Below are positions 14,611 through 38,682 of a stretch of 64,000 nucleotides of DNA, piece after piece. This stretch comes from an uncultured Elusimicrobia bacterium (GTDB lineage Bacteria; Elusimicrobiota; Elusimicrobia; 2-01-FULL-59-12). How positions within the stretch are numbered: the stretch's first letter is position 1; each line of letters starts with the position of its first letter. Under the pieces are notes generated by a model that was given only the letters and a program-made list of their open reading frames with translations, was not told where the DNA came from and did not search any database. Location: assembly GCA_963702895.1 (NCBI GenBank), contig OY969767.1, positions 704,001 through 768,000 on the forward strand, in the 5' to 3' direction. Position numbers and translations under genes: made by a program.

Positions 14611-14615
14611 AGTCG

Positions 14616-17631: not shown

Positions 17632-17639
17632 AATGATCA

Positions 17640-18648: not shown

Positions 18649-18655
18649 ACTAGGA

Positions 18656-18687
18656 AGTGTAACGGATGACTGTTACGGCGATGTTAC
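18656..18687 (-). promoter_or_regulatory. Shared promoter motif, copy 2 (GTAAC-N6-GTAAC-N8-GTTACACT)
   Basis: Minus strand reads GTAACATCGCCGTAACAGTCATCCGTTACACT, upstream of cpaC. Confidence 0.7.
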
Positions 18688-18817
18688 GTTTTTGTAACAA
18701 ATTCGTTAATTTACGCGGTGTTTTGGTCGTTGAAAGTCACTTTAATTCGTTTTTTCGGGCATTTTTGGTCAATTTGAGGGGGGTAGGTGGCAATTCAATC
18801 ATCTACTGTTCTCTATC

Positions 18818-18903
18818 GTCATCCCCCCCGGGTGTAAGGGGGGGATCCATGAATGCCGCACGACAATGATAGATCCCCCGCTAACACCCGCGGGGGATGA
18901 CGT
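18818..18903. repeat. CGTC-type REP-like palindrome
   Basis: GTCATCCCCCCCG...GGGGATCCAT...ATAGATCCCCCG...GGGGGATGACG. Confidence 0.75.
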
Positions 18904-18970
18904 CGTAGAGACTTATGGCACAGTCTCCAGGATGACAGCAGAAAGACTTCACGAATTCTGGGATGGAAAT

Positions 18971-20706: not shown

Positions 20707-21021
20707 TTAGTCTTTGGCGATTTTCTCTACGGCGCCTTGGCTCATTCCCTTGATGGCGTCGGTGCCTCCATCGGCCGGAGTGAACGCGCGCATGATAAAA
20801 AAGCCAATCACCGTCAGGATCCCGAGGAGAAGGAGGTATTCGCTGGAGGACTGGCCGCCGTTCTTTAGGTAACGGTGTATCGGAGTATCGGAGTGTCGGG
20901 GTAACAGCATATCTTTTGTTTGGTGTGACTCCGATACGCCGATACCCCGATACTCCGTTACTGACATTGGCGTGACCCCGTTACTCCGATACCCCGATAC
21001 TCCGATACTGTCTTTTACCAT
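20707..21021 (-). CDS. Second Flp-like pilin with repeat-expanded leader
   Basis: KNGG|QSSSEYLLLLGIL...; leader is mostly 8-mer palindromic repeat (20868-21010). Confidence 0.75.
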   Translation of the reverse strand: MVKDSIGVSGYRSNGVTPMSVTEYRGIGVSESHQTKDMLLPRHSDTPIHRYLKNGGQSSSEYLLLLGILTVIGFFIMRAFTPADGGTDAIKGMSQGAVEKIAKD

Positions 21022-22019
21022 CGCACCTTCACCGTCACCGTATGCGAGATGCCGAGCGCTCCAAAGGGCGCCATCGTGTAATCGACGACGAAATGGAGGG
21101 TCTTAAACTGAGGGGGACGCATTTCCAGGCCCCCGCCGAAGGTGAGGCCGGCGAGCGAAGCGCTGCGGAGCCAGGAAATCTTGGCGTCCAGAGAGTCATC
21201 GAGCTCATCCCGAGTATGGTAGCCCAAGCGGAGCACGGAGTTTTCCAGCTGCGGCATGCGGTATTCCCCCGCAAGCGAGATCCGTACCGGAGCGTCGTTC
21301 GTATATCCCAGCGCGAGCGCTGATGTAAAGATGGGGAGAAAGTCATAGGACAGCCCGCCGGTGAGTTCCAGAGGGAAATCCGCTTTTCCGGTCGACAGGT
21401 TTCTCGCCGTAAGGCCTACATGCAAAGTGTCCGAAGGGTCCAGCATGAGCCCGAGGTCCACGGCCGCGTTGTTGTATTTGGTGTCCGCGATCTTTTCCTG
21501 GATGACTTTGAGCTGTCCGCCCAGATAGAGGTCCATGCCAATCTCATCCCGTGACCGGAGCCGCCCGCCATAGCCAAGACCCAGCACGAGGTCGTAGGCC
21601 GAGAAGTCGCCCGTTTGAAGACCGGCGCTGTCCCGGCCTTCCATGTCGCCGGAGCCCAAATAAAAGAGGTTGGCGCCAAGGCCGCTCATATTGAAAGGAT
21701 GCGCGTAGCTGACATTTTCAATGGAGACGTCCTGGTAATATTCGATATGGGTTGCGGCGACTTCTTTGCTCGTTGTGAAGGCCAGCCCCGCGGGGTTCCA
21801 GCGCATGCCTTCCGTTCCTTTGGCGAGCGACACCATGGTGGCCCCCATCGCCACGCCCCGCGCGTCGGTAGGGATCTTCAGGAAGGCGCCGGCCTTCGTC
21901 CCCGCGTTGTCGCTAATCGCGTGAGCGGCGGACGGCGACAATAGAAAATAGACAATAGAGAATGCCGCAAGAGCTCTATTCTCTATTTTCCATTTTCGCC
22001 GTATGCCGTTCCTGTTCAT
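21015..22019 (-). CDS. PorV/PorQ-like (UPF0164) outer-membrane beta-barrel
   Basis: AFLKIPTDARGVAMG, WNPAGLA, C-terminal DY..APFGALG.SH...W. Confidence 0.8.
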   Translation of the reverse strand: MNRNGIRRKWKIENRALAAFSIVYFLLSPSAAHAISDNAGTKAGAFLKIPTDARGVAMGATMVSLAKGTEGMRWNPAGLAFTTSKEVAATHIEYYQDVSIENVSYAHPFNMSGLGANLFYLGSGDMEGRDSAGLQTGDFSAYDLVLGLGYGGRLRSRDEIGMDLYLGGQLKVIQEKIADTKYNNAAVDLGLMLDPSDTLHVGLTARNLSTGKADFPLELTGGLSYDFLPIFTSALALGYTNDAPVRISLAGEYRMPQLENSVLRLGYHTRDELDDSLDAKISWLRSASLAGLTFGGGLEMRPPQFKTLHFVVDYTMAPFGALGISHTVTVKVRW

Positions 22020-23143
22020 CGGATCACCGCCAACTTCTTAATGGTCTGCACGGTGCCTTCCGGGTCCTCTTCCCTGACGACAAAGTAATAGACCCCGCGC
22101 CCAACGGCGTTTCCCGCCTCATTGGTCGTGTCCCAGTTAAACGTGACGGTGTTGCCGGTGGCCTGGTTCAAGAAGCTCTCCTCCCGGACCAGGTCTCCCG
22201 CAAGCGTGTAAATCTTGAGCGTGATATTGGCGTTATTGCGCACGGCCAAAAACTGGAAGGTGGCCTGGCTGTTCCGGATGGGATTGGGAAACACGATGGC
22301 GTTGTCCGCGAAGAGCTGATCGAGACTGGAACCCAAGCGCGCCAGAGACTGGATGGCGATGGAGCCGGAGCGTTGGATCGCCCTATCGGCGCTTCCGGGG
22401 TCCTTCGCGTCGACGTAGACGGTATAAATTCCAAGAGGAACGGGTTTGGCGTCGTCGCCGAGGCCGTCCCACATCAAAATATTGGTCTTAATATGTTCAC
22501 CATACTGCGGCGCGTCGGTGGCCAGCGTGCGCTTGAGCGTACCGCTTGAATCTTTTATTTGAACTGTGACGAGCGAGTCTTTGGCCAGGTCATAGACGAT
22601 GTAATAGGGGAGAGTCGGGTTTTGGTTCGCGTCGGTGCTGGGAATGACGCTGAAATTGTGGATGTCAACGGAGGTGATTTCCAGTAGCTTGGGGATGGTA
22701 AAAGAGCTAACGCCGCTTGCGCCTCGCGCGATCAGGATCACCTGGAAATTACCGTTCTGCCGGCCGATATCGCCGCCTACAAGCCACAAGGCATTCCATA
22801 AGTAAGAATGGGCCCCGATGGCGACCCCGTGTTGCTGGATCGAAGCCACCTGGTTCAGCGAGCTGGGTTCTTCTGAAATGTCTTCGAGTCGGTGTATGTT
22901 GATTTCGATACTGGAGATCTCATCCGCCGTGGTGTAATTGATGGTGGTATCAAGGGGCGCACCGATGGTTTCATAGGGAATGGTGTAATTGGATAAGGAG
23001 GCGGCTGTCACAGCGGCGTCGACAGGAAGAGCACAGAGCAGAGAAACGAGAGCAGAAAGTAGAAGGCCGTACCGGAGTATCGGGGTAACGGGGTAACGGG
23101 GTAAGAGCTGCATAAATTGTTTGAAAAGACTTCTCATGGTCAT
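22016..23143 (-). CDS. Exported protein with FlgD Ig-like domain and C-terminal type-A-sorting-like domain
   Basis: WDGLGDD..PVP.GIY; C-terminal VFPNP...LKIYTLAGDLV...WD..N..G..V..GVY. Confidence 0.75.
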   Translation of the reverse strand: MTMRSLFKQFMQLLPRYPVTPILRYGLLLSALVSLLCALPVDAAVTAASLSNYTIPYETIGAPLDTTINYTTADEISSIEINIHRLEDISEEPSSLNQVASIQQHGVAIGAHSYLWNALWLVGGDIGRQNGNFQVILIARGASGVSSFTIPKLLEITSVDIHNFSVIPSTDANQNPTLPYYIVYDLAKDSLVTVQIKDSSGTLKRTLATDAPQYGEHIKTNILMWDGLGDDAKPVPLGIYTVYVDAKDPGSADRAIQRSGSIAIQSLARLGSSLDQLFADNAIVFPNPIRNSQATFQFLAVRNNANITLKIYTLAGDLVREESFLNQATGNTVTFNWDTTNEAGNAVGRGVYYFVVREEDPEGTVQTIKKLAVIR

Positions 23144-23758: not shown

Positions 23759-23790
23759 TTAACATGTACGTAACATGTACCTGTTATATC
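23759..23790 (+). promoter_or_regulatory. Shared promoter motif, copy 4 (TTAAC-N6-GTAAC-N8-GTTATATC)
   Basis: TTAACATGTACGTAACATGTACCTGTTATATC, upstream of tadG. Confidence 0.65.
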
Positions 23791-23810
23791 TAGTGCAGCA
23801 GCATCATCAT

Positions 23811-24956
23811 ATGAAGAGGATCCTGAGCGGCAAGAACGGTCAGTTTATTCCGATTTCCGCCATGGTGTTGTTCACCATGTCGGTCTTCCTCGTCGCTGTC
23901 GTCAATATCTACACCGTCACCCGCGCCAAGCTCCAGGTCCAAAACCTGGCGGACGCGGCCGCCCTTAACCTCGCCTCGCAGCAGGCCCAGGTTTTTAATC
24001 TCGTGGCCGACAAAAACGAATGGCTCAATCACATGATGGAGGGAGTGAAGAGCCCGAATGAAGACGGCGGTCCGGATTGCAGCCTCTTCAGTGCCAAGAA
24101 TGCGACGCTCATCCCCGGCATTTCTTGTGTCGAAAATGACGATAGGACGGGTCTTGCTCGCGGAGACGCCATCACTGCTACCGATATCAAGAAAGCCTCC
24201 TCGCGCAACTATAGGGGACCAAACGATGCTGCCTTCAAGCGCCATATCTTTTCCTCCCGCGGCGGGGCCATCAATTATGGGCTGATCCTTCATACCGTCA
24301 ACCAGGCGCAGAAACTCTTTATTCAGGCTTACAACTCCTTCCTTGGCGCGCCGAATCCGGCGGCAGGCGGCGCCTCATCGTCCAACGCCACCCCGCGCAA
24401 TTTTACGGCCCTCTTAAAGAAGGATATCCCGGCGCTCCGAGATCCGAACATTCGCCTGGTGGCCTGGAACTCTTCAGGCAAAGAAGAGGAGGCCAGACAC
24501 TCGCTGGCCAGCAGCTTTACGCCGGGTGAGGAAAGTGAACTCAAAGCCAAAATGGAGCCCCTCCAGTTTGAAGTCGAACGTGATCTTCAGACCCGGTATC
24601 TGATGACGAATAAAGACGTGAATAAACCGGACGGGTGGATTGTCGGAGCCACCTTCGGCCAACTTTTGTACGGGTGCATCCCTCAGGATTGGGTCAACAA
24701 GGATGCCAGTTATAAACGTTGCGGGCCCTTGAACGGCCAAGATCCTGCGAAAATCGGATGGTTAAAGCCCATCGCTATGCCAACTCTCAAAGTGGGCAGA
24801 GGGTCCCCTCAGGTCGGCGTGGGCGTCATGATTCAAAAAAAGATTACGCTGCCCGTGCTGGGGAGCAAAACCGTGAGCGCCACATCCAAGGCATACATCG
24901 TCGGGACCGCTGGCAGCGAGTTCCATCCGACGTATTGGGTGAAGCTAGGGAAATAA
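23811..24956 (+). CDS. tadG: TadG-like minor pilin/adhesin
   Basis: KNG|QFIP, hydrophobic helix, KLQVQNLADAAAL. ATG 23811 preferred because 23775 lies inside the promoter motif. Confidence 0.75.
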   Translation: MKRILSGKNGQFIPISAMVLFTMSVFLVAVVNIYTVTRAKLQVQNLADAAALNLASQQAQVFNLVADKNEWLNHMMEGVKSPNEDGGPDCSLFSAKNATLIPGISCVENDDRTGLARGDAITATDIKKASSRNYRGPNDAAFKRHIFSSRGGAINYGLILHTVNQAQKLFIQAYNSFLGAPNPAAGGASSSNATPRNFTALLKKDIPALRDPNIRLVAWNSSGKEEEARHSLASSFTPGEESELKAKMEPLQFEVERDLQTRYLMTNKDVNKPDGWIVGATFGQLLYGCIPQDWVNKDASYKRCGPLNGQDPAKIGWLKPIAMPTLKVGRGSPQVGVGVMIQKKITLPVLGSKTVSATSKAYIVGTAGSEFHPTYWVKLGK

Positions 24957-25075
24957 CCGTATCGGAGTAACGCCCGCCACTACAGCTCGGCGGGCCCGCC
25001 AACGATGTGATGGCGGGGAGTATCGGGGTAACGGAGTAACGGCAAATTGAGGATGAAACTATTTTAGAGAGTATT

Positions 25076-25759
25076 ATGAGAAACCTAATGCGAATGCTTA
25101 TTCGGCCTTTACTCCGGTACTCCGGTACCCCGATACCCCGGTACCCCGGAACCGCCGCTTCGCTTCGCTCCGCGGCGGGTCAAGCCTCAAGCGAAATCCT
25201 CTTCCTCCTTCCGCTTTTCGTCATGATGGCCGGCCTTGCGCTTTATGTGGGATACATGTGCTATCAGGGCGTGAAGGTCCAGCACGCCGCCAATTTCGCC
25301 GCGCGCATCCAGGGGCAGGAGCGCATAGGAGGCGGTGTGAGTCAAGACAGCATCAATCGATTAAATGGTCTGGAAGGCGCCTATGACGAAATCCCGGACG
25401 CGGCGACTCTGAGGAGCCTCTCAGGCAAAGATGTCCCGCCGGGGCGTCTGCGGAGGAAGGGACTCCATGGGGTGTATTGGAAGTATCGAACGCTTGCGGG
25501 AGAACTTTTCTATGAGGCCCCTGAAGACAAGCTTCTCTTCCCGAAACCGGACCTCGGCATCAATTCGGACAGGGTCCGGGTCGCGAGAATCTTGGTCCCT
25601 CCGAAGCTTTTCGGTCTGCAGATGGCGCCCATGGTTCTCGAGGCGGAGGCCTATGGGGGCGAAGACCCCCGGATGTACGGCCTGCCGCGCTGGGGTGAAA
25701 CAGGTGGTAAAACAGAATCGTTTTATAAAACCCAGATCAGGGAAAAGATAGGGCCATAA
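25076..25759 (+). CDS. tadE: TadE-like minor pilin with repeat insert in leader
   Basis: AG|QASSEILFLLPLF...QHAANFAAR. Confidence 0.75.
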   Translation: MRNLMRMLIRPLLRYSGTPIPRYPGTAASLRSAAGQASSEILFLLPLFVMMAGLALYVGYMCYQGVKVQHAANFAARIQGQERIGGGVSQDSINRLNGLEGAYDEIPDAATLRSLSGKDVPPGRLRRKGLHGVYWKYRTLAGELFYEAPEDKLLFPKPDLGINSDRVRVARILVPPKLFGLQMAPMVLEAEAYGGEDPRMYGLPRWGETGGKTESFYKTQIREKIGP

Positions 25760-26520: not shown

Positions 26521-26716
26521 GTTACGCCGTTGCCGTTACCCCGGCACTCCGATACCCCGTTACGCCGTTGCCGTTACCCCGGCACTCCGATACCCCGTTA
26601 CGCCGTTGCCGTTACCCCGATACTCCGGTACCCCGTTACGCCGTTGCCGTTACCCCGGCACTCCGATACCCCGTTACGCTGTTGCCGTTACCCCGATACC
26701 CCGTTACCCCGATACT
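26521..26716. repeat. 8-mer array with 38-bp higher-order period (5 copies)
   Basis: GTTACGCC GTTGCC GTTACCCC GGCACTCC GATACCCC units start at 26521, 26559, 26597, 26635 and 26673. Confidence 0.9.
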
Positions 26717-26859
26717 GCCACCCCGGGGCCCACGTTTCCCGTGGGACTTCTGGTCGGGGAAAAAAGGTCTTTGGATCGATTCAATGTGCGCCCGGCGGGC
26801 AGTATCCTTATGGTGTGGAAAAAAAGGTTCCTGGGAGGGGATCTTTTAGGTCGACTATT

Positions 26860-29800
26860 ATGATAACGCGATACTTATCGTGGTTGTATCGGCGTATCGG
26901 AGTATCGGCGTATCGGCGTATCGGAGTCACGGCCGTTACCCCGACACTCCGATACTCCGTTGCGCCGTCGCCTTTACCCCGATACCCCGTTACCCCGATA
27001 CCCCGTTACGATGTTTCGCTCTTCGCCTCTCGCTCCTCTGTCTTCTCTCGCTTCTTAGCCGTCTCCCTCTCTCTCTCGATGATCCTCACCGCGCCGGGCA
27101 CAACCGCCTGGGCGGAAGTCAGGTCTCAGAATGAGACGGAGCAATTAAAGGTCACCTCGGATAATGAGCCAGGAAAAAACTACAAGTCTTTAATCAAAAA
27201 CCCCAAGGCTGGTGGCGAAGCCATTCAATTGCTGCAAGCGCTTGCCAATTTGGGTATGGAACTTGGCTCTCGATTCGTAAAGCCTCAATCGATCTCCTCG
27301 ATGGCAGCTTTTCCCTTTGGTGGGCGTGGAGTTGAAAAAGGTGACGCCCAATACGCGAATCCCATCATCGTGCAGCACGATGTTGCGAATCTTGGTCATG
27401 ATGTGCGCACGTATCTGGGCGACATCCCAGTCATTGATTTAGACGAATCGGCTGCAACTCCTGACCAGTTGAGATATGGTGTCGCCAAACGGATGTTCGA
27501 GAGCATTGTTCACCCTGAACGAGATTCGCTTGAGGGTGGTACTGAAAAGGCTGGCGCGCCCGCATCCAATGCTTCCGTAGCCTCAGCAAATCCGAACGCG
27601 GGAGAAGAGCTTAATATTCCTCATATGCTGGAAATTCTGAAAAGCCAGCTTGGGGAAGCGGACAAGTCTGGAAAGGCGCGAGGCGGAGTTGTCGACGCCT
27701 ATCAGACGATGGTGGATGAATATAAGAACCTTTACGTTTCTAACGGTGTAGCAATAAAGATCAATCAGTATCTTCTAACGAAAACCAAAGCCGAACTTAA
27801 TGAGCTCGCTGTCGTCATCAATCAGTTAGAGATACAGAAAGCGACATGCGGCGGCGTGTTCACCCCGGCCTGTGTAGCTGTTGGCCGGCAACTTTCTGAT
27901 GCGCATGCAAAAAAGAAAGAGTTGCTCAAGAGACAAGCTGAATATGAAACAGCTTTGCGAGAAGCACAAGAATATTTCGCGGTGGCCAAACAGATGCTTC
28001 AACAGCTGCGGCAGGCTTCTTCAAATCCGAAGATGTTTGACTTTGACCACATGCTCAAGGGAGAAAAAGCTGAAGGTTATGACACTTCAAAGAGCCTTGA
28101 TGGTGTCATAGATGAGAGATATAACGACTGGAAAATGAAGCAAAGCAACAATGTCTTCGGAACGCTGACCAATTCTGTAGGCAGTTGGATATGGGCCCAC
28201 AAAGGGGCGATTATTGGTGCGGCGGTGGGCTTAGCGGCTGTAGCGGGCGTGATCGTATTTGCGCCAGCCGTGATTACGGGAGTTGCGGTGGCAGCCGTCA
28301 CCAAAGCGGCATTATTCGTCGGCGCGACTGCCGCTCCTGCTGCATTGACCACTGCGGCAGGTTGGGTCGCTGGGACGACGGCATTGGGAATCGGAGGTAC
28401 TGTAGGTGCGATGGCAGGGTCGCAATATGATGCAGGCGTGTTGTCAGCGAATCAGGCGACCATCCAGGCGGATGCAGCGCGAGCCGAGAGTACAGCATAT
28501 CGTCAAAAAACAGGAGCTTGGTTTGACCAATTGAAGGCATCCGGAGCCTCCCAAGATGCGTTAAGTAAGTTTCTTGCCGAGAGTGCGCGCAACGGACATG
28601 CCATGGATGCCGCCAAGACATTGCTGGCCGCTCAAAACGCGGCGGCTACAGCTTATAAGAACCTCGTCGGTATCGCTGCTCAATTACAAGATATCTTAAG
28701 TGGTGGGAACAATGCGCGTGATCAGTTCTTGCGTATAGCCAAGGCTTTAGGCGGTAGCTCCGTAGAGAATACCCTAGCGTCCAATTTGCGTAACGGCATG
28801 AAGTTGAACGATGCTGCCAATCATCTCTTCTCTTATCATTCCAATAATGTGTTGAAGTCTGTAGGCCAATCGTTCCAAGAGGGAATGCAATCATCATTCA
28901 TGAAAGGGCTTGAACAAACACGCAATGAGGTGAAAAGTGCCCAAGAGAATGCAAATAAAGTCCGACAATCAATCTTCCAGGCAGCCCAGAGCGGAGACCA
29001 TGATGCTCTAGCATTTGCGCGACAGAACGGAATGCAGTGGTTCGACTCTTATACAGGCGAACTCAGCCAAAATGCGTTCGATACTTCTCTCAAAGACCCG
29101 ACATCTGTTGGTCACTCATATGGGGACTACTCAACCCGCGTTCACAACACCTACAGTGGTGTGTCAAACCCGATATCGCCAATTGTAACAGCAGTGAAAG
29201 ATGCTTGGGGAGACTCAAGCGTGCTTCAGGATGGTGTAGTAGGAACGATTGGCCGCGTGGCCTGGGCGGGCGCCACAAGTGCTGTGAATTCTGTATTTGA
29301 GGTCGTCATGGATCCGGCCATGGCGGCTGGTGGTGCCATCTTCTCATTGAGTGGGAGCGCCATGCAGCGGTTTGGGGATACATATACCGGCCAGTGGCTC
29401 CAAACGGTTGGTGCTTCCCAATTCGGCAATACCGTCTTTTCACGCTCGCTAGGCGGCAATGCCTCCAGAGCCGTTCAATTTATGACAGGCGTCTCGGATC
29501 AAGAGCTGCTGCTTGACTACTCAAGCGGTCAGGGCCTCTTTAATACGAGAAATAGCCAATTCAACAGCTTCCTTAATACAACCAGACAAGAGCTGTTGCA
29601 GGAGGGCCAGCTGATGTCAAATGGTGCTGACGTTCTTAGCACCGTAAATATCAAAACAGCAAGTATGCGAGTGGGATCTCATGGCATCAGCGATTTATAT
29701 GCTGGCAATTACCTCTCAGGTGCGGCAAAGTTGGTGGGCGCAGGCTTGTCTATCGGCGGTCAGACGATGCTGGACATGGGCTCTTCCATGGGCGTTTTCA

Positions 29801-32800
29801 ATACGGGTATTGGGTATCTTGGTAAAGGTAATGCTTTTGTCCGTTCTGCCCTTCAAACTACCTTCGTACGTCTCCCTATGGCCCAATTTGGAATCGGAAT
29901 GGCGCATGACATGCGGAATATGTGGGAAGGCGTCCTCGCAGGAATGCATGGTGACACAGCCACGTCTGCCAAACTCTTTGGCAGTGGGTTGGTGGATTTT
30001 GCGGGGACGGCAGCTGGAATGACCGGCTTGGGCAGCATGCGTGCGGGAGCGCGTGCGGCTGGTGAACTGGGGAAGGGTGCTCCCGTCATGCAGCGGGCAC
30101 AGGCATACGCTTCCGGGTTTGCCCGTGACTTCGCGCCACGTCTCGTTTTCGAGACTGGGAAGCTGGGAATTCAGGGTGGATTGGTTTTGGCCGGTGGTGG
30201 CCTCATGGGTGGCGAGGGAGCCTTAGGGGGTGCTCTAGGCGGTGTGAAGGCCATTGAGATTGCTCCCCATCTTCCTGATTATGTACGTCTTCAGGCAGAT
30301 GAAATCAGAGTGGCCAATGACGTTGCTGCACGGGCCAGCATCAACACACCAGCCCAGGCTGAGAAAGCAGGGTATGCGACTCGGATTTATGAAAGGGCCC
30401 TATCGCGCTTTAGCGAATCCCAACTGAGTGCAATAGCCAAAGGTGAGGCTGGCCCAACGATAGACCTGGGTGCGAAGAACCCAGGCCTATCCTTAACACA
30501 ATCCAAAGTAGGTCGTTTCTTGCTTCGTGTAATGGGGAGCGAACCCGTCAATCCAGACAATACGCTGGCCGCATCCTTCAAGGTCGATGCCTCGAACCCT
30601 TACTTAAAAAAAGCGGCTGAAAATGTGCTCGTCAAACGAGTGGTGCCACAATCGACCGGGACCATAGCTGAGGCGCTCCGCGCTGGCTATCGTGAAGTAA
30701 GGTCCATGTTGAGCCCAGAGCCTGCGATGCAATTGGTGGGTGTTGGTGGCATGGTGCTAGGCGAATTTTCTGCCCCGAGAGAAATCACGCGTCAGTCTGT
30801 GGCGTCGAGATCTTCTCAGGCCCCTCAGGAGGCCACTCAGCCTTCAAGGTTCCAGAGGTACAAAATCTTCAGGGCTGAACGCGTGCAAAGCCCAATCGAA
30901 GCACTTAAGCGTCTGCATGAAACAACAGTTCAAGCAGGAGAAGCGTTGCGTGCTAACCCAAGCGATGCGAACTTAGCAAGAGCCTATAAAAAGGCGGCAG
31001 CCCGCGAACTGAGCGCGGTAGGTGAAGTTCGTGACATCCTGATTTTGCGAGGGGGTGCTGAGTCTGGAATCCGGGATATTGCGGAGACCTTAAGGCGCAC
31101 GAGGGAAGCTAATCATGAATTGAGTCGACTTGCGGATGAAGCAGGAGCGCATGTCAGTATAGCCGTGGGTTCCGAGGCGCTGGCACGCGCAGGCAACAAT
31201 GCGACTCCCTTACAGGTAGCGGAGGCAAAGTTCCGCCAGGCTTCGGGCGTTGCGCAGCTGGCGCGGGCGACGAACGATGGGACAGTGCCGGCGCGCCAAG
31301 CAACGTATAAAGCCTATGCTGAACTTGAAAGAGCGCGCGCTGACCTGCTTGAAGCGCAGTTGCGTGCAGATGAAGCGCAGAAACCTTCATCAGGGGGCCC
31401 TGATGCGCGGCTTGCGGAATTGCGGGCTCAAGAGGTGCGGGCTCAGGTCGCGGTAAGCCGTGCTCAAGCGGAGGCCCTCGAGAGCATGGCTCGCAGTCGT
31501 GGCGAATTGAACGCGGCGAGTGATCGTCTTAAAGCGGTACGACAGGCAGCGCAAGAAGCAAGAGACGTACGTGTCGGAGAGGAAATTGAACAAGCAGGGC
31601 GGTATCGAGCGCGCCTCCAGGAGCAGGAAGCGATCCTTAGCGACTCCTCACGAGCAAACGATCACGCTCAGGCTGTTCGGGCTAAGAAGGCTCTTGAAGC
31701 CGAACAATATCTCGCGAAGCTCAAGGCTGAAGGCGAGCATCCCGCAGCGGGTAGATACATCGAGGCAGAGCAGCAGGCTGCTTATCTCCGGCGCTTGGCA
31801 GACAAAGGGCTTGATCCCGTAACAGTGCGCGATAAGATACTGCATCCTGTTGCATCTTTGCGACGATCATCTGCCTTGCGTCAGTTAACCAAAGCAGTTC
31901 ATCAAGAAGTTGTATTCAAAAAGGCTCTCGATGGTGTCGTATCCAAGTTGTCGCCAAAAGTTCAGGCTGATGGGGAATGGGTGCGGTCGCTTCTTTCCGG
32001 AACTGATCCAGCGGCAAGGTTAGCTGAAGTTCGATATAACTTCGAAGATATTAGGGCAGAAGATTCGCCCGATGGACTGGCCTATAAGAAAGGTACATAT
32101 CGCTTCGAGATCACGAAAAAAGGTCTGGAAGGAAATGAGGGAGCGTTACTCCAACAAAGGATAACTGAATTAAATCGCGGACTCCAGAAGATTGCTGAAG
32201 CAGTTGGGATTGATGGCCTATTCCGGACACAGATCAATCAAATTCTTCAGGCTATTGGTGTGCCTCGTACATTTATTGTTGAAGGGACTGGCGGAGGCAA
32301 GACCAAAGTGATCACGCCGGCGCTCGCCTACTTGTTGAAATCGGTATATGGCGATGCGATCGGGAGGGTTACGGTTGCTTTGCCGGATACCAATTTGTTG
32401 CGCGGCGCATACAGTGAAGTTGGAATAGTCTACGAAAAACTCTACGGCAAAGGTGGAGTTTATAAATTGGAGGGCGATGCCATTAAGGGACAGGGCATCG
32501 CATCAGTTATCGAGAGTGTACGTAAGGCCAAGGTCATCTATACGACACGCGATACACTGAAACAGCTTGAAATGCAATATTCCGCTTCTGCAATGTCATC
32601 GCCAAAAGAAGTGGAGTTGTACAAGCTGCTCATTGATAAAGGCGTCATCATTGCCGATGAAGCCCATCAGTTGCGAAAAGTAGATCTTATACAAGGCAAT
32701 GATGGAACGCAGCCGCTTCGAATCGCTAACCGTGAAATGAATGACGCGATGCTTCGCGTAGATGCCGTGCTAGAGTCAATGAGAAATGACCCTCAATACA

Positions 32801-35800
32801 AAGCCTACCAAGACTTTCTGTCTCGTACTGGATTTAGAGACAACTACGATTCGTTTTATCGCTTCATGGCTGAACATGTTGCAGAAGACGGCTCGTTCAG
32901 CTCCTCGTTTTTGCAGGCTTATGCAAAGGCAAGTCAAGGTCGAGTGAACATGAAAGACCTGCGAAACCCCCGCTCATTTGCAATGGAGAATGAAGCGGCA
33001 GCGCTGCGAGGCTTTGGGGAAGCTGTGACCATCGCGCACCAATCGGAAAACGGCTATGGGCTTCATGCGAAAGCAAAGCCAGGCCAAGTTGTTCCTATGT
33101 CCCTGGGAGAGCCCAACCCAACTATGCGATGGAGCGATTCGGCGATGACAGGGGCGCGCCAGATCGTAGGTGCGAGGCGTCTTTCAGATGCAAAGCAATG
33201 GAACAAGGAGGGTAGGGCAGATCTCAGCGCGAAAAGCTTGCTTGAAAATGCCGAGACCAATGGGTCATCCGTGAGAGTTACCGACCTCAGTTATCTCAAA
33301 CGGTTCATGGGTGTGATCGAGCTGTCGGGATCGCCACAAGGCGTGATTCAGCGCGAAGCGGTTGACCTTGGTCTCATGGCGCCGAGGAATTATCAGGACT
33401 CTTCTCCAATGGCCCGGCTGCTCGAACGAGGGATGAATTGGATTCGAGGTCAGGATGTGAAAAATGTTCAGGATGTCAAAGAGATGGCAGCGCTTGCGGC
33501 CAGAGAGATCGAAGGACGACAAGTTGCCGTCATTGGAATTGAGTCCAATCAACTGCATGGTTTCGAGTATTCAAAGGCTTTGGTCGATAGACTATCGAAA
33601 GAGCCTGGTCGAATCGTCTTAGTCCAAAGCGGGCCTAAAGTCGAGATCTTTAGAGATGGTGTGAAGCTCGGCGAAAGACCCTCGGGCGAACTGGGTGACA
33701 TTTTAACGAGTCGCGAAGCTCAAGAACGCTACCTCGGAGGCCCGCTTGGCAAACAGAAGATCGCGATCGTTCTTGATCAAGGAGGGGTCACAGGGACTGA
33801 CATCAAAATACCATTTAAGCCCGCCAAGGTATTGCAGTCTTTGGAAAGATTTGCTGATGGTGCGCGTCGGGACAGTCTGCGCGCAGACGAGCTCGAACAG
33901 ATTCGCCTGGATCCGGCTGCGCGTCGTTTGTTCAGCGAAGACGGAAGGCTGATAGGTTCACTGGATCAAGTGCGCAATCGAATTGTTGAACTGAAGACTT
34001 CAGAAATGGTGAGCCGGCTATTACGTGGAGATCCACTGACTGAAGTGGAAGCTCGTAGCTTGAAAGCAGGCCTTGAAACGCTGGCTCGCTCTGGGGATAA
34101 GGCGGCTGGGGATCTTTCACGGATCGTAAAGGGAATCCAAGATGCTGAATTCGCGAAAGTTGAGGTCTTGAAAGATAAAGGTTTATTCGATCAGGCCAAC
34201 CCCGCGGCCAGGGAGATGTATCGAGGCGTGTTCAGTGAATATTTAGATAGTGGACCCAAATTCATTTCCGTGGGAGGCAAAGAGACAGCCTCCAAGCGGC
34301 TCGTTCAAACAGTCGGCCGCGATCGTGGCATTGATGTCGCGGCGTATGGGTACCACTCCAAGACGGTCATCAAAATTACAGGCGAGCCGATTGAAGAACC
34401 ATCCAGACGTCTGACAGATTTACTCAAAACCACAGAAATCAATGAGGCACGAAACAATCAAGAAGACTTATACCAAGGCTTTGTATCTGCGCTGACTGAA
34501 AACATGCTTAGCCGTTTTGATCATATGCTTACCAATATTGATCCGGGAATGGGGGGGCGGCGTGTAAAGGCGGAACGAGATGCCGTGATCTCGGCACGGA
34601 AGGCTTTTGAAAAGAGAGCAGGTCTTAACAGTAATCTGGTCGTCGGAAAGCGTACGAAGGCTTTTCAAGCGCTTCAGCAAGATGTCGTCCGGTTGCAGGA
34701 GACATTTGAGCGCGTCACGAAAGAATACAGGAGCGCTCTTGGGAAAGCAAATCGTGCATTTGTCGACACGATGAATCAGAATCAAGTGCGTCTTGCTTTT
34801 AATGAAGGGTCTCAGGGATGGAAAGCGTCGGATGGTATTGATTCAAAGCAAAGACTGTTTAATCCATCACCCGTAGCTGAGGGGCAGGCTGGAGCAGGGC
34901 GCCCAGCTGCTGAAATTCAAGGCCTGGTAGGTCTCGGCTTCAGTGAAGCTGTCAGTCGAATTGGACGGGCTCTCAAAGCCAGTGATTTGGATTTTGAAAT
35001 AGGGCAGCCTCAAAAAACGGCTGTGACATCCGCAGAAAATCTCATTTCGTACGCACAAGACCGCCTGGCTGCATCGCGGTCCAGCGTGGTGTCTGTTCGC
35101 GATCTCCTTGAAATTCAGCGCGCCTCTGTTCGTGCAGCCAATAGCCTGGGACCTAACGGACATCTGCCGCCGGTTGTGGGGATGATTGCTTCAGTTGGCG
35201 CTTCGCCCGATGATATTAAGGAGATCTTAACGCGAGAGCCTAAGATCAAAGGAGCAAACCCCGACACGCCGGATGCTCTTCCTGACTTTGTTCCGAAATT
35301 ACAGACAGCGGGACCGTCACAACGGGTGGCGGCTAGTATGAATGGTGTTGCTGACGACCTCAGGCAGGGATGGATGAGTTCCAAGGGTTACAAGAAACCA
35401 CTAGCAGCGCTTGCCAATGCCGTTCGCTCTTATGGAAGTGGACAGGTCACGGATTCTGGACGATTTAATATTGCTCTGAATGCGTACAAAGCAGCGCCCG
35501 CGTTGGTCGGCCATGCGTTTCTGCCTGAATTAGCGTTGAACAACGCACAAGCAGCCAGAGAGTCGCTTTCTGCAATGCAAAGCGCTTTGAGTGAAGCCAA
35601 GGACCCATTAGTTACTCGTAGTCTGGAACGATCGATTCAGATTGCTCAGAACGCCCCGCGGGCGGCCGTCGAATCCGACCCCGGCTACACCGTCGTGCGG
35701 GAGGGCCAGGGCGCGCAGGCGGCCGTGGCGGTGCACGTGACGGGGGCGACGGCCGAGCTCACGAGAGGCATCCTGAGCCTGCTGAAGTATGCCGCGGCCT

Positions 35801-38682
35801 CCAAGGCGCCGGTCACCATTTACGATCCCCAAAAACTTCTGTCGGCGCGGCTGCAACTGGAGATTGAGAAAGCCAAGCAGGCCGGCGCGCTGGTCGAGTT
35901 AACAGACCAAGCGCCTCCTCCCTTGACCGTCCGCCAGACAGTGCAGGCGGCCGCCAATCGTGCCTTTGGCGCGGCGGGCCGGCCTTCCTTTGATATTGCC
36001 GGCGCGGTAAAGCTCCAGGAGCGTGTCACTCAGCTTGGGCGCCAGCATGCAGAGGCTATCCAGAAACAGAGGATGGCACAGCTGGTCGAAGCACACGGTC
36101 CCGAGATCCTCCAGCGCATGGGGCCGCAATTTGCCGATCTTCGTCCCGAAGACTTGAAGCTCACGCCGAAAGAACAACAAGGGCTTCAAGAGCTGCAAAG
36201 GGCCCAGGAAGAACTGGAGCAGAGGGTGCATGCCTTGCGGCCTTACGCACCGCTTTACCTGGACGCCTATCGCGTGCAGAAGCCGATGGCCGCGTTCGAG
36301 AACGATCCGCGGCATGAGCTGCTCAAGCAGCTGGCGGCCGCCCAAGACGACGCGGGCGCCCTGAAGGCGCTTCACGAGTATGCACAGCCGGCTGTGACCC
36401 CTGAGCAGGAGCGCGCCGCGCTGAGTAGAGCCACCAGCGATTCCTTTGTTAGCAAGCTTCCGGATGGCACGCTGAAATTCTTTGGCCTTGAAGCCCCGGC
36501 AGGTGTATTGCAGGCCTTCGATACAGCCCTGGCGATGGTCATCAAGGGGAACGCTGGATTGAAGCCCCTCTCGGGGCCCATGGGTCAATTGCGGGGAGGT
36601 CTCTCGAGTGATCCGGCTTTTGAAAAGCTGGATATGGCCGGACAGATCGCTACTTTGGAAGCGAGATTGGCCGACTATTTGACATCGATGAAGCAGCTCC
36701 CTGTATACACTTCTGCGCAGGAGGCTATCGCTAGGGCGTCTCAAATGGCATTTGAAGGCCCCACCATCAAGACCCGCGGTCTGATGGAAGAGCAGATTGC
36801 CGTGCAGACAAGAGACCTTCCTCGAGAGACCGTGCCCATTTTTGTCGTCGAGGATGAACAAGCCGAGCAGATTCTGAATCCCGCCGGGACGGTCATGACG
36901 GGGCATCACCCCAAAGTGATCACGCAAGAGCAATACCAGGCCTATCAAATGGAATTGAGCAATTTGATCAAAGCCGCCGCGGAGAAACGGGTTAGCGATC
37001 TGCCCAAGTGGTTTGCGGCGCGGGAGGCCTATGCCACACGGCAGCAGACGATGCAGGCGGGCTCATCGGTGGCGACGCTGGTCGTGACGACCCTGGTTAC
37101 GCTGGGCCTCATTTCGTCGGGCGTGGGCACGGTCATGGGCATTGTGGTGGGCTTGCCCATGATGTGGCAGATGATGAAGACCATGCCAGCCATGATGCAG
37201 GCCATGAAGCTCGCCAAGCAGAATGGAACGCGCCCGGCCGCAGCGGCGCCTTCGGCGCCGCGTCTCGCGCTGCCGCAGATGGCCGGTATCGGAATTGCGG
37301 CGGCGGTGGTGCTGGCGTCGATGATCTTCGGATCCATGTTCTATGGCATTCCTCTGGGCCTGGGCAGCATGGTAATGAGCTTATTGATTCCCATTTTCAC
37401 CGGCGGGTCCGTTCTTTCCTTCGGGATTGGCGCGCTGCGCCACGTGCGCCGCGCCGCATCAGCACCGCCCGGCTCTCTCTCCGCTTTGGCGCAGCTTGAG
37501 CACATGGAGCCGGCGGCGCTCAAGAGGTTGGCCCGTGGCGCCAAGCTGGATGAGGAGACGGCCGACGCGCTCGTTGACAAATTTGCGGACGTGGCGCCGG
37601 TGACAACCGACGGCCTGTCGCCGCTTACGCTTTTCCGCGAGGCTTTGCGTGATCAGATTTATAAACTGACCGATGATGAGTTTCTGGCATCGAAATTGGC
37701 GAAAGAAACTTGGGCAAAGTTTGAACAAGCACTCGATCAAGGACTTGATTTTGAAGGCCTGCAGAAGAAAATCCGAGAGTATAAAGCCTCGGGCGAAGCC
37801 GGTCAATTCAAGGATCGGTTTAACAAGCTCCTGATGAGAGCATGGCGTAGCGCACAATACTCTCAGGCGATCCTCTATCGCGCAGCCGCGCGCCGTGCGA
37901 TTGCCGGCATCCGCCCCGGAGCGCTTCTGGCCGCGCCTTCGGCACGCGAAGTCCCGCTCATTCGGCAAGCCGTGAAAGCCATCCAAGCTCAACAAGCTAA
38001 CGCCAGCGAGGCGGCAGCACCAAACGCTGCCGCGGCGCCCGTTCCTTGGCGGGTGATTGACGGCAGTGCCTATCAGCAGTTCCTTGCCGCGGTGAAGGCG
38101 CAGGCCCGCCCGGCGGCTGCCGCCGCGCAGCCGGCGAGTGCTTCAGTTTCCGTACCCGATTCTGCGGCGGAGGTGAGACCTGACCCCGTTTCACCCGCCG
38201 CAGCTCTTTCTCCGATCGTCCGCACGAGCGTCCTCGTCTACAGCGGCTTGGCGATGGTCGGCATTTTCGCGGCGGCCATGCTGCCAGGGGCCGCCGCCGT
38301 TGCCGCCATCGCCGGCGTCGGCTTCATGGCCTCGATGTGGAGGCGCATGACGGATCAGGCGCTTCCTTCACCAGCAGTGACCGCCCAAGCGCCGCCGCGC
38401 TCCTTCTTCGGCATGCCCGTGAGTCGTCTGGCAAGAGTCGGTGGGTTGGCGAGCGCGCTCATTCTGGTTTTCAGCGCCCTCTCGCAAGCCTCACCGTCCC
38501 AGGTGCCCGGCGCGGCCGCCGCCGCGACCGGCTTCTCATGGGCGTCCCTCGGCTCGCTGGCCGCGCCGGTGGCCCTGGTGGCCGTCGTCGCGATCGCGGC
38601 TGTTAGCCTCATCCGTCACTACCGCTCCTCCCGCAGCCCTGTTCCTGAAGACCACAAGAAAGCCTTCGGCGCCACCGCCTAA
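26860..38682 (+). CDS. Giant (~3,940 aa) membrane-associated protein with central SecA-like SF2 ATPase
   Basis: Signal peptide ...SLSMILTAPGTTAWA|EV; Gly/Ala-rich hydrophobic helices; coiled coils; GTGGGKT, DEAH, RWSD, LSGS, GTDIK, QTVGR; C-terminal TM hairpins. ATG 26860 preferred over 26476, whose extension is translated repeat. Confidence 0.85.
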   Translation: MITRYLSWLYRRIGVSAYRRIGVTAVTPTLRYSVAPSPLPRYPVTPIPRYDVSLFASRSSVFSRFLAVSLSLSMILTAPGTTAWAEVRSQNETEQLKVTSDNEPGKNYKSLIKNPKAGGEAIQLLQALANLGMELGSRFVKPQSISSMAAFPFGGRGVEKGDAQYANPIIVQHDVANLGHDVRTYLGDIPVIDLDESAATPDQLRYGVAKRMFESIVHPERDSLEGGTEKAGAPASNASVASANPNAGEELNIPHMLEILKSQLGEADKSGKARGGVVDAYQTMVDEYKNLYVSNGVAIKINQYLLTKTKAELNELAVVINQLEIQKATCGGVFTPACVAVGRQLSDAHAKKKELLKRQAEYETALREAQEYFAVAKQMLQQLRQASSNPKMFDFDHMLKGEKAEGYDTSKSLDGVIDERYNDWKMKQSNNVFGTLTNSVGSWIWAHKGAIIGAAVGLAAVAGVIVFAPAVITGVAVAAVTKAALFVGATAAPAALTTAAGWVAGTTALGIGGTVGAMAGSQYDAGVLSANQATIQADAARAESTAYRQKTGAWFDQLKASGASQDALSKFLAESARNGHAMDAAKTLLAAQNAAATAYKNLVGIAAQLQDILSGGNNARDQFLRIAKALGGSSVENTLASNLRNGMKLNDAANHLFSYHSNNVLKSVGQSFQEGMQSSFMKGLEQTRNEVKSAQENANKVRQSIFQAAQSGDHDALAFARQNGMQWFDSYTGELSQNAFDTSLKDPTSVGHSYGDYSTRVHNTYSGVSNPISPIVTAVKDAWGDSSVLQDGVVGTIGRVAWAGATSAVNSVFEVVMDPAMAAGGAIFSLSGSAMQRFGDTYTGQWLQTVGASQFGNTVFSRSLGGNASRAVQFMTGVSDQELLLDYSSGQGLFNTRNSQFNSFLNTTRQELLQEGQLMSNGADVLSTVNIKTASMRVGSHGISDLYAGNYLSGAAKLVGAGLSIGGQTMLDMGSSMGVFNTGIGYLGKGNAFVRSALQTTFVRLPMAQFGIGMAHDMRNMWEGVLAGMHGDTATSAKLFGSGLVDFAGTAAGMTGLGSMRAGARAAGELGKGAPVMQRAQAYASGFARDFAPRLVFETGKLGIQGGLVLAGGGLMGGEGALGGALGGVKAIEIAPHLPDYVRLQADEIRVANDVAARASINTPAQAEKAGYATRIYERALSRFSESQLSAIAKGEAGPTIDLGAKNPGLSLTQSKVGRFLLRVMGSEPVNPDNTLAASFKVDASNPYLKKAAENVLVKRVVPQSTGTIAEALRAGYREVRSMLSPEPAMQLVGVGGMVLGEFSAPREITRQSVASRSSQAPQEATQPSRFQRYKIFRAERVQSPIEALKRLHETTVQAGEALRANPSDANLARAYKKAAARELSAVGEVRDILILRGGAESGIRDIAETLRRTREANHELSRLADEAGAHVSIAVGSEALARAGNNATPLQVAEAKFRQASGVAQLARATNDGTVPARQATYKAYAELERARADLLEAQLRADEAQKPSSGGPDARLAELRAQEVRAQVAVSRAQAEALESMARSRGELNAASDRLKAVRQAAQEARDVRVGEEIEQAGRYRARLQEQEAILSDSSRANDHAQAVRAKKALEAEQYLAKLKAEGEHPAAGRYIEAEQQAAYLRRLADKGLDPVTVRDKILHPVASLRRSSALRQLTKAVHQEVVFKKALDGVVSKLSPKVQADGEWVRSLLSGTDPAARLAEVRYNFEDIRAEDSPDGLAYKKGTYRFEITKKGLEGNEGALLQQRITELNRGLQKIAEAVGIDGLFRTQINQILQAIGVPRTFIVEGTGGGKTKVITPALAYLLKSVYGDAIGRVTVALPDTNLLRGAYSEVGIVYEKLYGKGGVYKLEGDAIKGQGIASVIESVRKAKVIYTTRDTLKQLEMQYSASAMSSPKEVELYKLLIDKGVIIADEAHQLRKVDLIQGNDGTQPLRIANREMNDAMLRVDAVLESMRNDPQYKAYQDFLSRTGFRDNYDSFYRFMAEHVAEDGSFSSSFLQAYAKASQGRVNMKDLRNPRSFAMENEAAALRGFGEAVTIAHQSENGYGLHAKAKPGQVVPMSLGEPNPTMRWSDSAMTGARQIVGARRLSDAKQWNKEGRADLSAKSLLENAETNGSSVRVTDLSYLKRFMGVIELSGSPQGVIQREAVDLGLMAPRNYQDSSPMARLLERGMNWIRGQDVKNVQDVKEMAALAAREIEGRQVAVIGIESNQLHGFEYSKALVDRLSKEPGRIVLVQSGPKVEIFRDGVKLGERPSGELGDILTSREAQERYLGGPLGKQKIAIVLDQGGVTGTDIKIPFKPAKVLQSLERFADGARRDSLRADELEQIRLDPAARRLFSEDGRLIGSLDQVRNRIVELKTSEMVSRLLRGDPLTEVEARSLKAGLETLARSGDKAAGDLSRIVKGIQDAEFAKVEVLKDKGLFDQANPAAREMYRGVFSEYLDSGPKFISVGGKETASKRLVQTVGRDRGIDVAAYGYHSKTVIKITGEPIEEPSRRLTDLLKTTEINEARNNQEDLYQGFVSALTENMLSRFDHMLTNIDPGMGGRRVKAERDAVISARKAFEKRAGLNSNLVVGKRTKAFQALQQDVVRLQETFERVTKEYRSALGKANRAFVDTMNQNQVRLAFNEGSQGWKASDGIDSKQRLFNPSPVAEGQAGAGRPAAEIQGLVGLGFSEAVSRIGRALKASDLDFEIGQPQKTAVTSAENLISYAQDRLAASRSSVVSVRDLLEIQRASVRAANSLGPNGHLPPVVGMIASVGASPDDIKEILTREPKIKGANPDTPDALPDFVPKLQTAGPSQRVAASMNGVADDLRQGWMSSKGYKKPLAALANAVRSYGSGQVTDSGRFNIALNAYKAAPALVGHAFLPELALNNAQAARESLSAMQSALSEAKDPLVTRSLERSIQIAQNAPRAAVESDPGYTVVREGQGAQAAVAVHVTGATAELTRGILSLLKYAAASKAPVTIYDPQKLLSARLQLEIEKAKQAGALVELTDQAPPPLTVRQTVQAAANRAFGAAGRPSFDIAGAVKLQERVTQLGRQHAEAIQKQRMAQLVEAHGPEILQRMGPQFADLRPEDLKLTPKEQQGLQELQRAQEELEQRVHALRPYAPLYLDAYRVQKPMAAFENDPRHELLKQLAAAQDDAGALKALHEYAQPAVTPEQERAALSRATSDSFVSKLPDGTLKFFGLEAPAGVLQAFDTALAMVIKGNAGLKPLSGPMGQLRGGLSSDPAFEKLDMAGQIATLEARLADYLTSMKQLPVYTSAQEAIARASQMAFEGPTIKTRGLMEEQIAVQTRDLPRETVPIFVVEDEQAEQILNPAGTVMTGHHPKVITQEQYQAYQMELSNLIKAAAEKRVSDLPKWFAAREAYATRQQTMQAGSSVATLVVTTLVTLGLISSGVGTVMGIVVGLPMMWQMMKTMPAMMQAMKLAKQNGTRPAAAAPSAPRLALPQMAGIGIAAAVVLASMIFGSMFYGIPLGLGSMVMSLLIPIFTGGSVLSFGIGALRHVRRAASAPPGSLSALAQLEHMEPAALKRLARGAKLDEETADALVDKFADVAPVTTDGLSPLTLFREALRDQIYKLTDDEFLASKLAKETWAKFEQALDQGLDFEGLQKKIREYKASGEAGQFKDRFNKLLMRAWRSAQYSQAILYRAAARRAIAGIRPGALLAAPSAREVPLIRQAVKAIQAQQANASEAAAPNAAAAPVPWRVIDGSAYQQFLAAVKAQARPAAAAAQPASASVSVPDSAAEVRPDPVSPAAALSPIVRTSVLVYSGLAMVGIFAAAMLPGAAAVAAIAGVGFMASMWRRMTDQALPSPAVTAQAPPRSFFGMPVSRLARVGGLASALILVFSALSQASPSQVPGAAAAATGFSWASLGSLAAPVALVAVVAIAAVSLIRHYRSSRSPVPEDHKKAFGATA

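Follow-up and report, generated by a model that had tools for sequence, protein, structure and literature searches.

The locus described here raises the question of whether a giant bacterial protein can carry a SecA-like motor of its own and, if so, what that motor would move. It lies in a 64,000-nucleotide stretch of DNA from an uncultured Elusimicrobia bacterium (GenBank assembly GCA_963702895.1, contig OY969767.1, positions 704,001 to 768,000 of the forward strand; hereafter the window, with coordinates counted from its first letter). SecA-like modules embedded in giant proteins are the only clue proposed for how proteins that are thousands or even tens of thousands of residues long are inserted or exported. 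In an earlier note on this DNA, a divergent SecA-like ATPase had been recognized within a giant protein with a signal peptide. Our analysis favors, with a probability of about 0.55, a very divergent superfamily 2 (SF2) ATPase on the plan of SecA that may act as a membrane-tethered, polypeptide-clamping motor for very long proteins. Positions 32200 to 34400 would then be the ATPase core of a module of some 1,000 to 1,300 residues, which is the conserved part that a rare family of giant membrane proteins has in common.

The module is encoded within one uninterrupted open reading frame (ORF) of 4,068 codons on the plus strand (26476-38682), and all nine motifs cited by the earlier note are indeed present in this single frame, between residues 1936 and 2615 (Table 1). 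The predicted layout comprises a first RecA-like lobe with Walker A and DEAH, an insert of about 190 residues resembling the preprotein cross-linking domain (PPXD) of SecA, motif III, and a second RecA-like lobe with TGTDI and QTVGRDRG. Within the second lobe, a helical insert of about 140 residues (33823-34245) separates motifs V and VI, and a helical extension of about 250 residues follows motif VI. In an alignment with 11 relatives, the invariant or near-invariant columns are G64, G66, and K67 of Walker A, D186, E187, and H189 of DEAH, M342 of M-R-W-S-D, A352 and G357, T386 and D395 of TN..S.RVTD, G565 of TGTD, and R740 and D741 of GRDRG. Given that the previously noted motifs coincide with the most conserved columns of the family, they are under selection, with the ATPase residues retained. 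A chance ORF or chance motifs were rejected as an explanation in view of this conserved family. The features expected of a two-lobe SF2 ATPase (GTGGGKT, DEAH, and QTVGRDRG) are near-invariant in the family, and the module is a conserved, probably active member of this superfamily. Being common to all SF2 ATPases, Walker A, Walker B, and motif VI are not specific to SecA.

The family is rare and sporadic. When the 800-residue segment encoded at 32101-34500 was searched against 1,835,955,588 representative proteins, 13 matched at E ≤ 1e-3, 11 at E ≤ 1e-10, and 4 at E ≤ 1e-30, one of the last being the query protein itself; SecA was absent among the 13. These matches are 238 to 7,008 residues long, several of them being fragments, and the relatives in the alignment share 23 to 50% identity. 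The part common to the family covers residues ~1880 to 2860, or ~1720 to 3040 in the two closest relatives, and the rest of the proteins is variable (BLASTP). According to a hidden Markov model (HMM) of the family, the 2.72-Mb host genome has a single copy and no paralog. Five of 401 genomes of the phylum, the host included, match this HMM at E ≤ 0.01, with only one other genome being credible (G350, 1.9e-15), and none of the five other genomes of the same taxonomic family, which are 89 to 98% complete, gave a match. A look-up of sequencing runs listed no RNA run and two DNA runs, with small shares (0.17 and 0.07). The ATPase-coding stretch at 32001-34000 has the lowest G+C content of the window (0.50, versus 0.57 for the genome and 0.60 to 0.64 at 46 to 60 kb). 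Acquisition by transfer would be compatible with this low value and with the patchy occurrence of the family.

The evidence that points to SecA comes mainly from the predicted fold. The AlphaFold2 (AF2) model of the 800 residues has a predicted local distance difference test score (pLDDT) of 68.8 and a predicted template modeling score (pTM) of 0.53, with the insert being modeled well. A Foldseek search, which had been suggested as a check, placed SecA on top (2ipc_B, E 3.4e-3, probability 0.80), ahead of RIG-I (5.3e-3, probability 0.54); the support is weak, as no match reached E ≤ 1e-3. Upon re-scoring of 994 Foldseek-ranked chains with VIA-align, 13 of the 14 top entries were SecA or SecA2 (Z 6.7 to 8.1, 157 to 308 residues aligned), typically with residues 203 to 797 of the model on SecA residues ~226 to 600, that is, on the PPXD plus the second nucleotide-binding domain (NBD2). 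Nucleic-acid helicases ranked after SecA, with Z values of 5.2 to 6.7 over 100 to 160 residues (a spliceosomal helicase chain, FANCM, Brr2, and MDA5) or 247 residues (Cas3). Some of the other rows are generic helical bundles, the only structures that the helical insert of lobe 2 resembles, and Rossmann-like folds matched by lobe 2, both of which we treat as common arrangements.

The insert between motifs II and III was also folded alone (32683-33300, 206 residues; AF2 model mb50377184be9, pLDDT 75.4, pTM 0.75) and compared by VIA-align with 48,161 chains without Foldseek preselection. Ranks 1 and 2 were an MBP-SecA-PPXD chimera (5k94_B, Z 6.8, root mean square deviation [rmsd] 3.9, 127 residues) and SecA2 (4uaq_A, Z 5.0, rmsd 4.0, 106 residues, chain positions 240 to 358), with Z values of at most 3.5 from rank 3 onward. 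In a further comparison, 5k94_A reached a Z of 7.6 versus 3.3 for the next chain. As two PPXD entries head 48,161 chains, clear of the background, and the insert occupies the position of the PPXD in SecA, this match is hard to ascribe to chance. The 50 insert matches listed include no Arch domain of the XPD/DinG type. With moderate confidence, we consider the insert to be PPXD-like by fold and position, and we put a SecA-type build of the module as a whole at roughly two chances in three. At the level of structure, the best match is to SecA, with one recognizable SecA subdomain, rather than to a generic SF2 helicase or a restriction subunit.

Several observations weigh against a SecA-type motor. 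In the 800-residue model, lobe 1 has a pLDDT of 47 to 60, the Z values of 5 to 8 are middling, and the rmsd is 10 to 19 A in most of the multidomain SecA alignments. With the insert alone, Foldseek gave a best E value of 2.3, and no further SecA representative is found among the 50 matches listed. By sequence, the SecA families of Pfam and NCBIfam had no match at E ≤ 10 on the 800-residue segment or its pieces, so that the profile scan proposed earlier recovered neither SecA_DEAD nor SecA_PP_bind. Likewise, SecA families were not matched at E ≤ 1 on the whole giant protein (Pfam), PF01043 (SecA preprotein cross-linking) was unmatched on the segment, and a whole-genome search with PF07517 (E ≤ 10) hit the canonical SecA and, weakly, two unrelated places but not the giant ORF. 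BLASTP of the module against the genome's own SecA was not significant, and the family HMM does not match that SecA either. With seven regions of giant ORFs that match SecA_DEAD, the family HMM reached E values of only 0.0003 to 0.2, mostly around Walker A. When the SecA-like region of a giant from another genome (G004) served as the query, the matches in 400 genomes were all canonical SecAs, and longer proteins gave none. Proteins of the PDB were not found by sequence with phmmer (E ≤ 10), and the family profile returned 12 chance-level rows (best E 0.19); NCBIfam gave no match, and PADLOC gave one weak match to mad8 (0.0047). Finally, in motif V, a Thr precedes G-T-D where the GRGTDI of SecA has an Arg. 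This Arg has a role in SecA.

For profile comparisons with hhalign, we used self-made local profiles, with 31 canonical SecAs of the phylum and, as controls, 29 ResIII-type helicases from 26 genomes, clustered. To canonical SecA alone, the whole domain matched with a Prob of only 7% (E 0.005) and lobe 1 with 17%, and neither the insert nor lobe 2 on its own gave a sequence-profile signal to SecA (Prob 0.1 to 1.6%), again to the detriment of a SecA-type motor. The match with SecA is collinear over 297 columns, pairing GKT with GKT, DEAH with DEVD, LIxG with LIISG, M-x-W-S-D with R-R-W-S-D, and TGT with MTGTA, and TGTDI was aligned with GRGTDI in a greedy run. In other words, the RWSD and GTDI motifs that had been taken to point to SecA do align collinearly with it, but they are not statistically decisive alone, with P values of 0.03 to 0.16 for the insert plus motif III against SecA. 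A profile broadened with four SecA-like domains from giant ORFs of other genomes, added to the 31 SecAs, gave a Prob of 96.8% (E 2.8e-10, 166 columns). Since this broadened profile itself matches HsdR at 90.7%, its score is partly a generic SF2 signal. Judged by sequence, the module is an outlier among SF2 ATPases, at about the same distance from SecA as from restriction-type motors. The assignment to SecA rather than to a nucleic-acid helicase is supported at the level of fold and not at that of sequence family, where lobe 1 is at least as near to HsdR.

This likeness of lobe 1 is the chief argument for the main rival, a nucleic-acid translocase or helicase tethered to the membrane. Such a ResIII/HsdR-like SF2 enzyme would move, for instance, DNA with the Tad-type pilus, its PPXD likeness being fortuitous, a possibility that we consider unlikely though far from negligible. 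Lobe 1 matches an HsdR-type cluster with a Prob of 97 to 97.7% (E 2e-12 to 8.5e-11) and two other ResIII-type clusters with 80 to 92%. It also carries the only Pfam matches of the segment, ResIII (2.3e-5, 24.8 bits, marginal at a cut-off of 22.5) and DEAD (8e-5, 22.9 bits, below the cut-off of 26), and one or the other of these is found in 5 of the 11 relatives scanned, versus none for any SecA family. A weak match to a PHROGs DNA helicase (2.1e-4) and a Walker B box that reads DEAH, as in many DNA translocases, would also fit. However, the HsdR match is limited to lobe 1 (132 to 142 columns), whereas true ResIII clusters pair with each other through both lobes, over 363 to 473 columns, at 99.6 to 99.8%; lobe 2 of the giant's family matched the HsdR clusters with a Prob of at most 1.1%. 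Furthermore, Helicase_C, nuclease/HSDR_N, and EcoEI_R_C are all unmatched in the giant protein (Pfam), while the member that this genome contributes to the HsdR-type cluster combines ResIII with EcoEI_R_C. Helicases also rank below SecA by structure, and the insert, placed between motifs II and III as in SecA, has the PPXD of SecA as its only match above background.

Alternatively, the SecA-like build might belong to a cytoplasmic unfoldase or remodeler that acts on the long cytoplasmic part of the giant itself, or to a Tad regulator, rather than serving translocation. Such a role, which seems clearly improbable to us, would be consistent with the family's own conserved helical extension, with the tight synteny with TadG- and TadE-like genes, and with the lack of detectable equivalents of the scaffold, wing, two-helix finger, and zinc finger, the parts that canonical SecA uses at SecY. 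PF07516 (scaffold/wing) was unmatched, and the 460 residues that follow motif VI matched SecA with an hhalign Prob of 0.1%, at the sequence level only; PF02810, the SEC-C zinc-binding motif, was unmatched on the whole protein. The flanking membrane segments and the conserved signal peptide, on the other hand, fit a role at the membrane. That the domain has decayed and is kept as a catalytically dead structural spacer is a very remote prospect. Its extreme divergence, the low confidence at which lobe 1 is modeled, and the variable motif III (SGS, TGT, or TAT) might be taken as signs of decay, but the Walker A Lys, the Walker B Asp-Glu, and the motif VI Arg-Asp are near-invariant even at the low identities among the relatives, and the module is precisely the part of these giants that is conserved across the family.

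Under the reading that we prefer, a motor of the SecA type, the membrane-tethered module would use ATP to clamp polypeptide chains and move them on the cytoplasmic side of the membrane, and might in this way assist very long proteins with many membrane spans in being threaded across, or inserted into, the inner membrane. Possible substrates are the giant protein itself and its giant neighbors, among them the cell-wall-enzyme protein of 12,935 residues discussed below; the housekeeping SecA would work alongside. This canonical SecA is encoded elsewhere in the genome (G000:C1:1096194-1097429, SecA_DEAD at 3.7e-133 and 3.9e-132) and matches SecA_DEAD, SecA_PP_bind, P-loop_SecA, and SecA_SW at 1e-43 to 1e-132; given its presence, the SecA-like module of the giant is an extra. 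The idea of self-translocation has already been published for giant proteins of Omnitrophota (10.1101/2023.11.21.568195), and it would extend to the present protein by analogy. Action inside a target cell, the other option raised in the earlier note, found no support. Conceivably, a Tad-type machine includes the protein as a dedicated SecA-like motor, anchored in the membrane and co-inherited with the TadG- and TadE-like pseudopilins, which drives the export of separate giant cell-wall-attacking proteins such as the LysM/SLT/transferase neighbor of 12,935 residues. We regard this version as rather improbable; if true, it would represent a previously unrecognized secretion route for giants in Elusimicrobiota-like bacteria, in which motor and cargo are different polypeptides.

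A position at the membrane is suggested by both ends of the protein. The likely start codon, ATG 26860, lies 128 codons into the ORF and yields a protein of 3,940 residues, equal in length to a public protein entry (P0003); the only later in-frame start before the signal-peptide-like segment, ATG 27079, would truncate that segment. The motif S[MI][IV]LT[AM]PG..WA is kept in three relatives (P0004, P0005, and P0007), so that the segment ending in A-W-A is conserved in all four members with such an N terminus, in line with the signal-peptide-bearing giant claimed earlier. We take it to be a Sec-type signal peptide at the start of the protein, which is presumably cleaved. A prepilin-type leader was rejected, as the hydrophobic stretch precedes PG rather than following it. 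The core of this segment (S-M/I-I/V-L-T-A/M-P-G-..-W-A) is retained among relatives of only 25 to 40% identity, and the extreme C terminus (38560-38682), in which a membrane segment and a basic stretch precede an ending in ..T/N-A, is common to relatives P0004 to P0008. Together, these conserved ends suggest dedicated sorting or processing signals. The topology rests on a Kyte-Doolittle hydropathy scan (window 19, threshold 1.6), which places the ATPase module within a stretch of about 2,900 residues between hydrophobic clusters A and B. If the module hydrolyzes ATP, this stretch must face the cytoplasm, and we infer such a topology.

The 5' end of the giant ORF has an unusual makeup, its first ~530 bases being arrays of 8-nucleotide tandem repeats, of which the stretch at 26886-27009 translates in frame into a Pro/Arg/Tyr-rich peptide. 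Such arrays (TAACGGAG, CCGTTACC, and CCGATACC, plus inverted copies) are found at 25757-25882, 26002-26073, 26521-26725, 26886-27009, and 46.1-47.5 kb, and hence flank the TadE-like gene as well as filling the 5' end of the giant ORF. The peptide signature TPIPRYPDTP, SEYRSTGVP is found again close to the 5' end of the second giant ORF, of 12,935 residues.

Table 1. Coordinates of the module, the giant gene, and neighboring features in the window
Feature	Coordinates	Strand	Basis or remark
First RecA-like lobe (NBD1 equivalent), with Walker A and DEAH	32218..32700	+	Pfam, hhalign, conserved columns
EGTGGGKT	32281-32304	+	Walker A
VTVALPDTNLL	32368-32400	+	previously noted motif, position confirmed
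VIYTT	32533-32547	+	previously noted motif, position confirmed
IADEAH	32650-32667	+	Walker B/DEAH
Insert between motifs II and III, PPXD-like fold, ending in M-R-W-S-D and TN..S.RVTD	32683..33300	+	AF2 model, structure comparison
GEPNPTMRWSD	33106-33138	+	ends in conserved M-R-W-S-D
SYLKRF	33289-33306	+	previously noted motif, position confirmed
LSGS, motif III (TGT or TAT in relatives)	33322-33333	+	alignment
Second RecA-like lobe (NBD2 equivalent), with motifs V and VI	33334..34395	+	model secondary structure, SecA structural alignment
GTDIK, motif V (TGTDI)	33793-33807	+	position confirmed
QTVGR, motif VI	34306-34320	+	QTVGRDRG spans 34306-34329
Helical extension, family-conserved	34396..35595	+	BLASTP conservation, to residue ~2850 in distant and ~3040 in close relatives
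Giant gene	26860..38682	+	ORF open from 26476; start ATG 26860 likely
8-nucleotide tandem repeat arrays (CCGTTACC / CCGATACC, inverted GTATCGGC)	26521..27009	not assigned	5' end of giant ORF
Signal-peptide-like segment: basic n-region, hydrophobic FLAVSLSLSMILTA, PGTTAWA	27016..27114	+	read from sequence
Hydrophobic cluster A, residues 575-640, 1-3 membrane helices	28198..28395	+	hydropathy
Hydrophobic cluster B, residues 3528-3654	37057..37437	+	hydropathy
Hydrophobic cluster C, residues 3914-4050, then basic tail and conserved C-terminal end (..T-A)	38215..38625	+	hydropathy
Tad-type pilus/secretion core: two T2SSF (TadB/C-like), T2SSE ATPase, ParA/TadZ-like, secretin, TadE-like	13741..20373	-	Pfam
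PorV-like and FlgD-Ig/CHU_C genes, divergent to giant gene	21015..23143	-	Pfam, conserved neighborhood
TadG-like (23775-24956) and TadE-like (25076-25759) pseudopilin genes, directly upstream	23775..25759	+	Pfam Tad 6.6e-5, TadE 1.4e-4
12,935-residue ORF: LysM, SLT lytic transglycosylase, S-adenosylmethionine methyltransferase, Glyco_transf_5	46022..64000 and beyond (G000:C1:749878-788682)	+	runs off window

The neighborhood of the giant gene is conserved in a distant relative. Single-protein searches located no relatives' loci in genome contigs and likewise none in metagenome contigs; an alignment-based search of metagenome contigs returned two loci, one of which (L200) has flanking genes. 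It encodes a 4,036-residue relative with 30% identity over 1,425 residues, and its PorV-like, FlgD-Ig, TadG-like, TadE-like, and giant genes follow in the same order and orientation, with about 30 to 49% identity per gene (48.5% for the PorV-like and 39.9% for the FlgD-Ig/CHU_C gene). As this five-gene order is shared, the link of the giant gene to the TadG- and TadE-like genes is conserved. The presence of PorV-like and FlgD-Ig/CHU_C genes, the latter resembling type IX sorting domains, beside TadG, TadE, and giant genes in both loci amounts to an unusual mix of type IX secretion system-type and Tad-type components. An antisense ORF of 126 codons (26083-26463, minus strand) between the TadE-like and giant genes is absent from L200; its sequence resembles the four-helix-bundle / 23S rRNA intervening-sequence protein type.

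Downstream, the region between the two giant genes (39289-45413) holds two paralogous AAA_14 plus DUF4143 ATPase genes, an HATPase_c_2 gene, and a nucleotidyltransferase gene of the AbiEii/DUF6036 type, and from its gene content looks like a defense or toxin-antitoxin-like islet. The 12,935-residue neighbor that follows resembles the multi-enzyme "Archaeovorin-type" giants of Omnitrophota and is a possible cargo or partner of the motor protein. Past the window, on the same strand (G000:C1:788779-807850), lie ORFs of 3,018 residues (with a DnaJ J-domain), 1,536 residues (without a Pfam match), and 1,730 residues (FBPase_3). In the genome as a whole, there are 31 open frames of at least 1,500 residues, the longest having 13,707.

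Compared with canonical SecA and SecA2 (PDB 6itc, 1tf5, 4uaq, and 2fsf), which form its best structural match family, the module would share the two-lobe SF2 motor, the PPXD-type domain between motifs II and III, and the same order and partly the same spacing of motifs. In contrast, it is neither soluble nor stand-alone, has no sequence-family match, and carries a DEAH instead of a DEVD Walker B, a motif V without the Arg, and a large helical insert in lobe 2; the scaffold, wing, two-helix finger, and SEC-C zinc finger went undetected in sequence searches. The host's canonical SecA, for its part, is 57 to 72% identical to SecAs of Elusimicrobia, Elusimicrobiota, and Endomicrobiales and 50 to 56% identical to those of Omnitrophota. 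With ResIII and type I HsdR translocases, the module has in common the lobe 1 profile, the DEAH box, and a Gln located some 20 residues before Walker A. It differs from HsdR in its unmatched lobe 2, the absence of nuclease and HsdR-specific domains, the PPXD-like insert, and its place within a membrane protein, whereas the genome's own HsdR carries a Helicase_C-type lobe 2, an HSDR_N nuclease, and EcoEI_R_C. No HsdM or HsdS genes are seen among the neighbors of the giant gene annotated by Pfam in the window.

The closest parallel is found in the giant proteins of Omnitrophota. In a bioRxiv preprint, West-Roberts et al. (2023, 10.1101/2023.11.21.568195) describe these proteins as having many transmembrane regions. 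[quoted passage not shown] SecA-like domains in giants are also reported for some Actinobacteriota (10.1101/2023.11.21.568195; 10.64898/2026.06.07.730766), and the second of these sources, a 2026 preprint, lists an architecture group of 20 proteins with PF07517 as well as giant genes flanked by Tad cassettes (10.64898/2026.06.07.730766). We confirmed SecA-like modules visible to Pfam in giant ORFs of the present phylum and of Omnitrophota genomes. Similar to the Omnitrophota giants, the Elusimicrobia protein has its putative motor embedded in a giant with several membrane segments, follows a predicted NBD1-PPXD-NBD2 plan with scaffold and wing undetected by sequence, coexists with a normal SecA, and is encoded just downstream of a T2SS/Tad-like cluster (13.7 to 25.8 kb) and near giants with cell-wall-active and transferase domains. 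The self-export hypothesis would, by analogy, apply equally.

The differences are nevertheless considerable. Domains of the Omnitrophota type are recognized by Pfam or SecA HMMs (E 1e-20 to 1e-114 in the examples fetched), whereas the Elusimicrobia module is not, even at E ≤ 10, and forms a separate small family that has additional helical inserts and in which the signal peptide and the TadG/TadE synteny are conserved. Moreover, the motor protein, of ~4,000 residues, is distinct from the enzyme-laden giant, while the giants of that paper have at least 30,000 residues. If our reading is correct, the embedded SecA-like plan extends well past Pfam detection and occurs outside Omnitrophota, and the motor and the enzyme-laden giant can be different proteins, the motor being co-inherited with TadG- and TadE-like genes. 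A protein of ~4,000 residues with a conserved module of ~1,000 would also be more tractable for expression, ATPase assays, and structure determination than the 30,000- to 80,000-residue proteins described so far. In conclusion, embedded SecA-like motors in giant proteins have already been described, and what this locus adds is a separate family of this kind that is invisible to the SecA profiles of Pfam.

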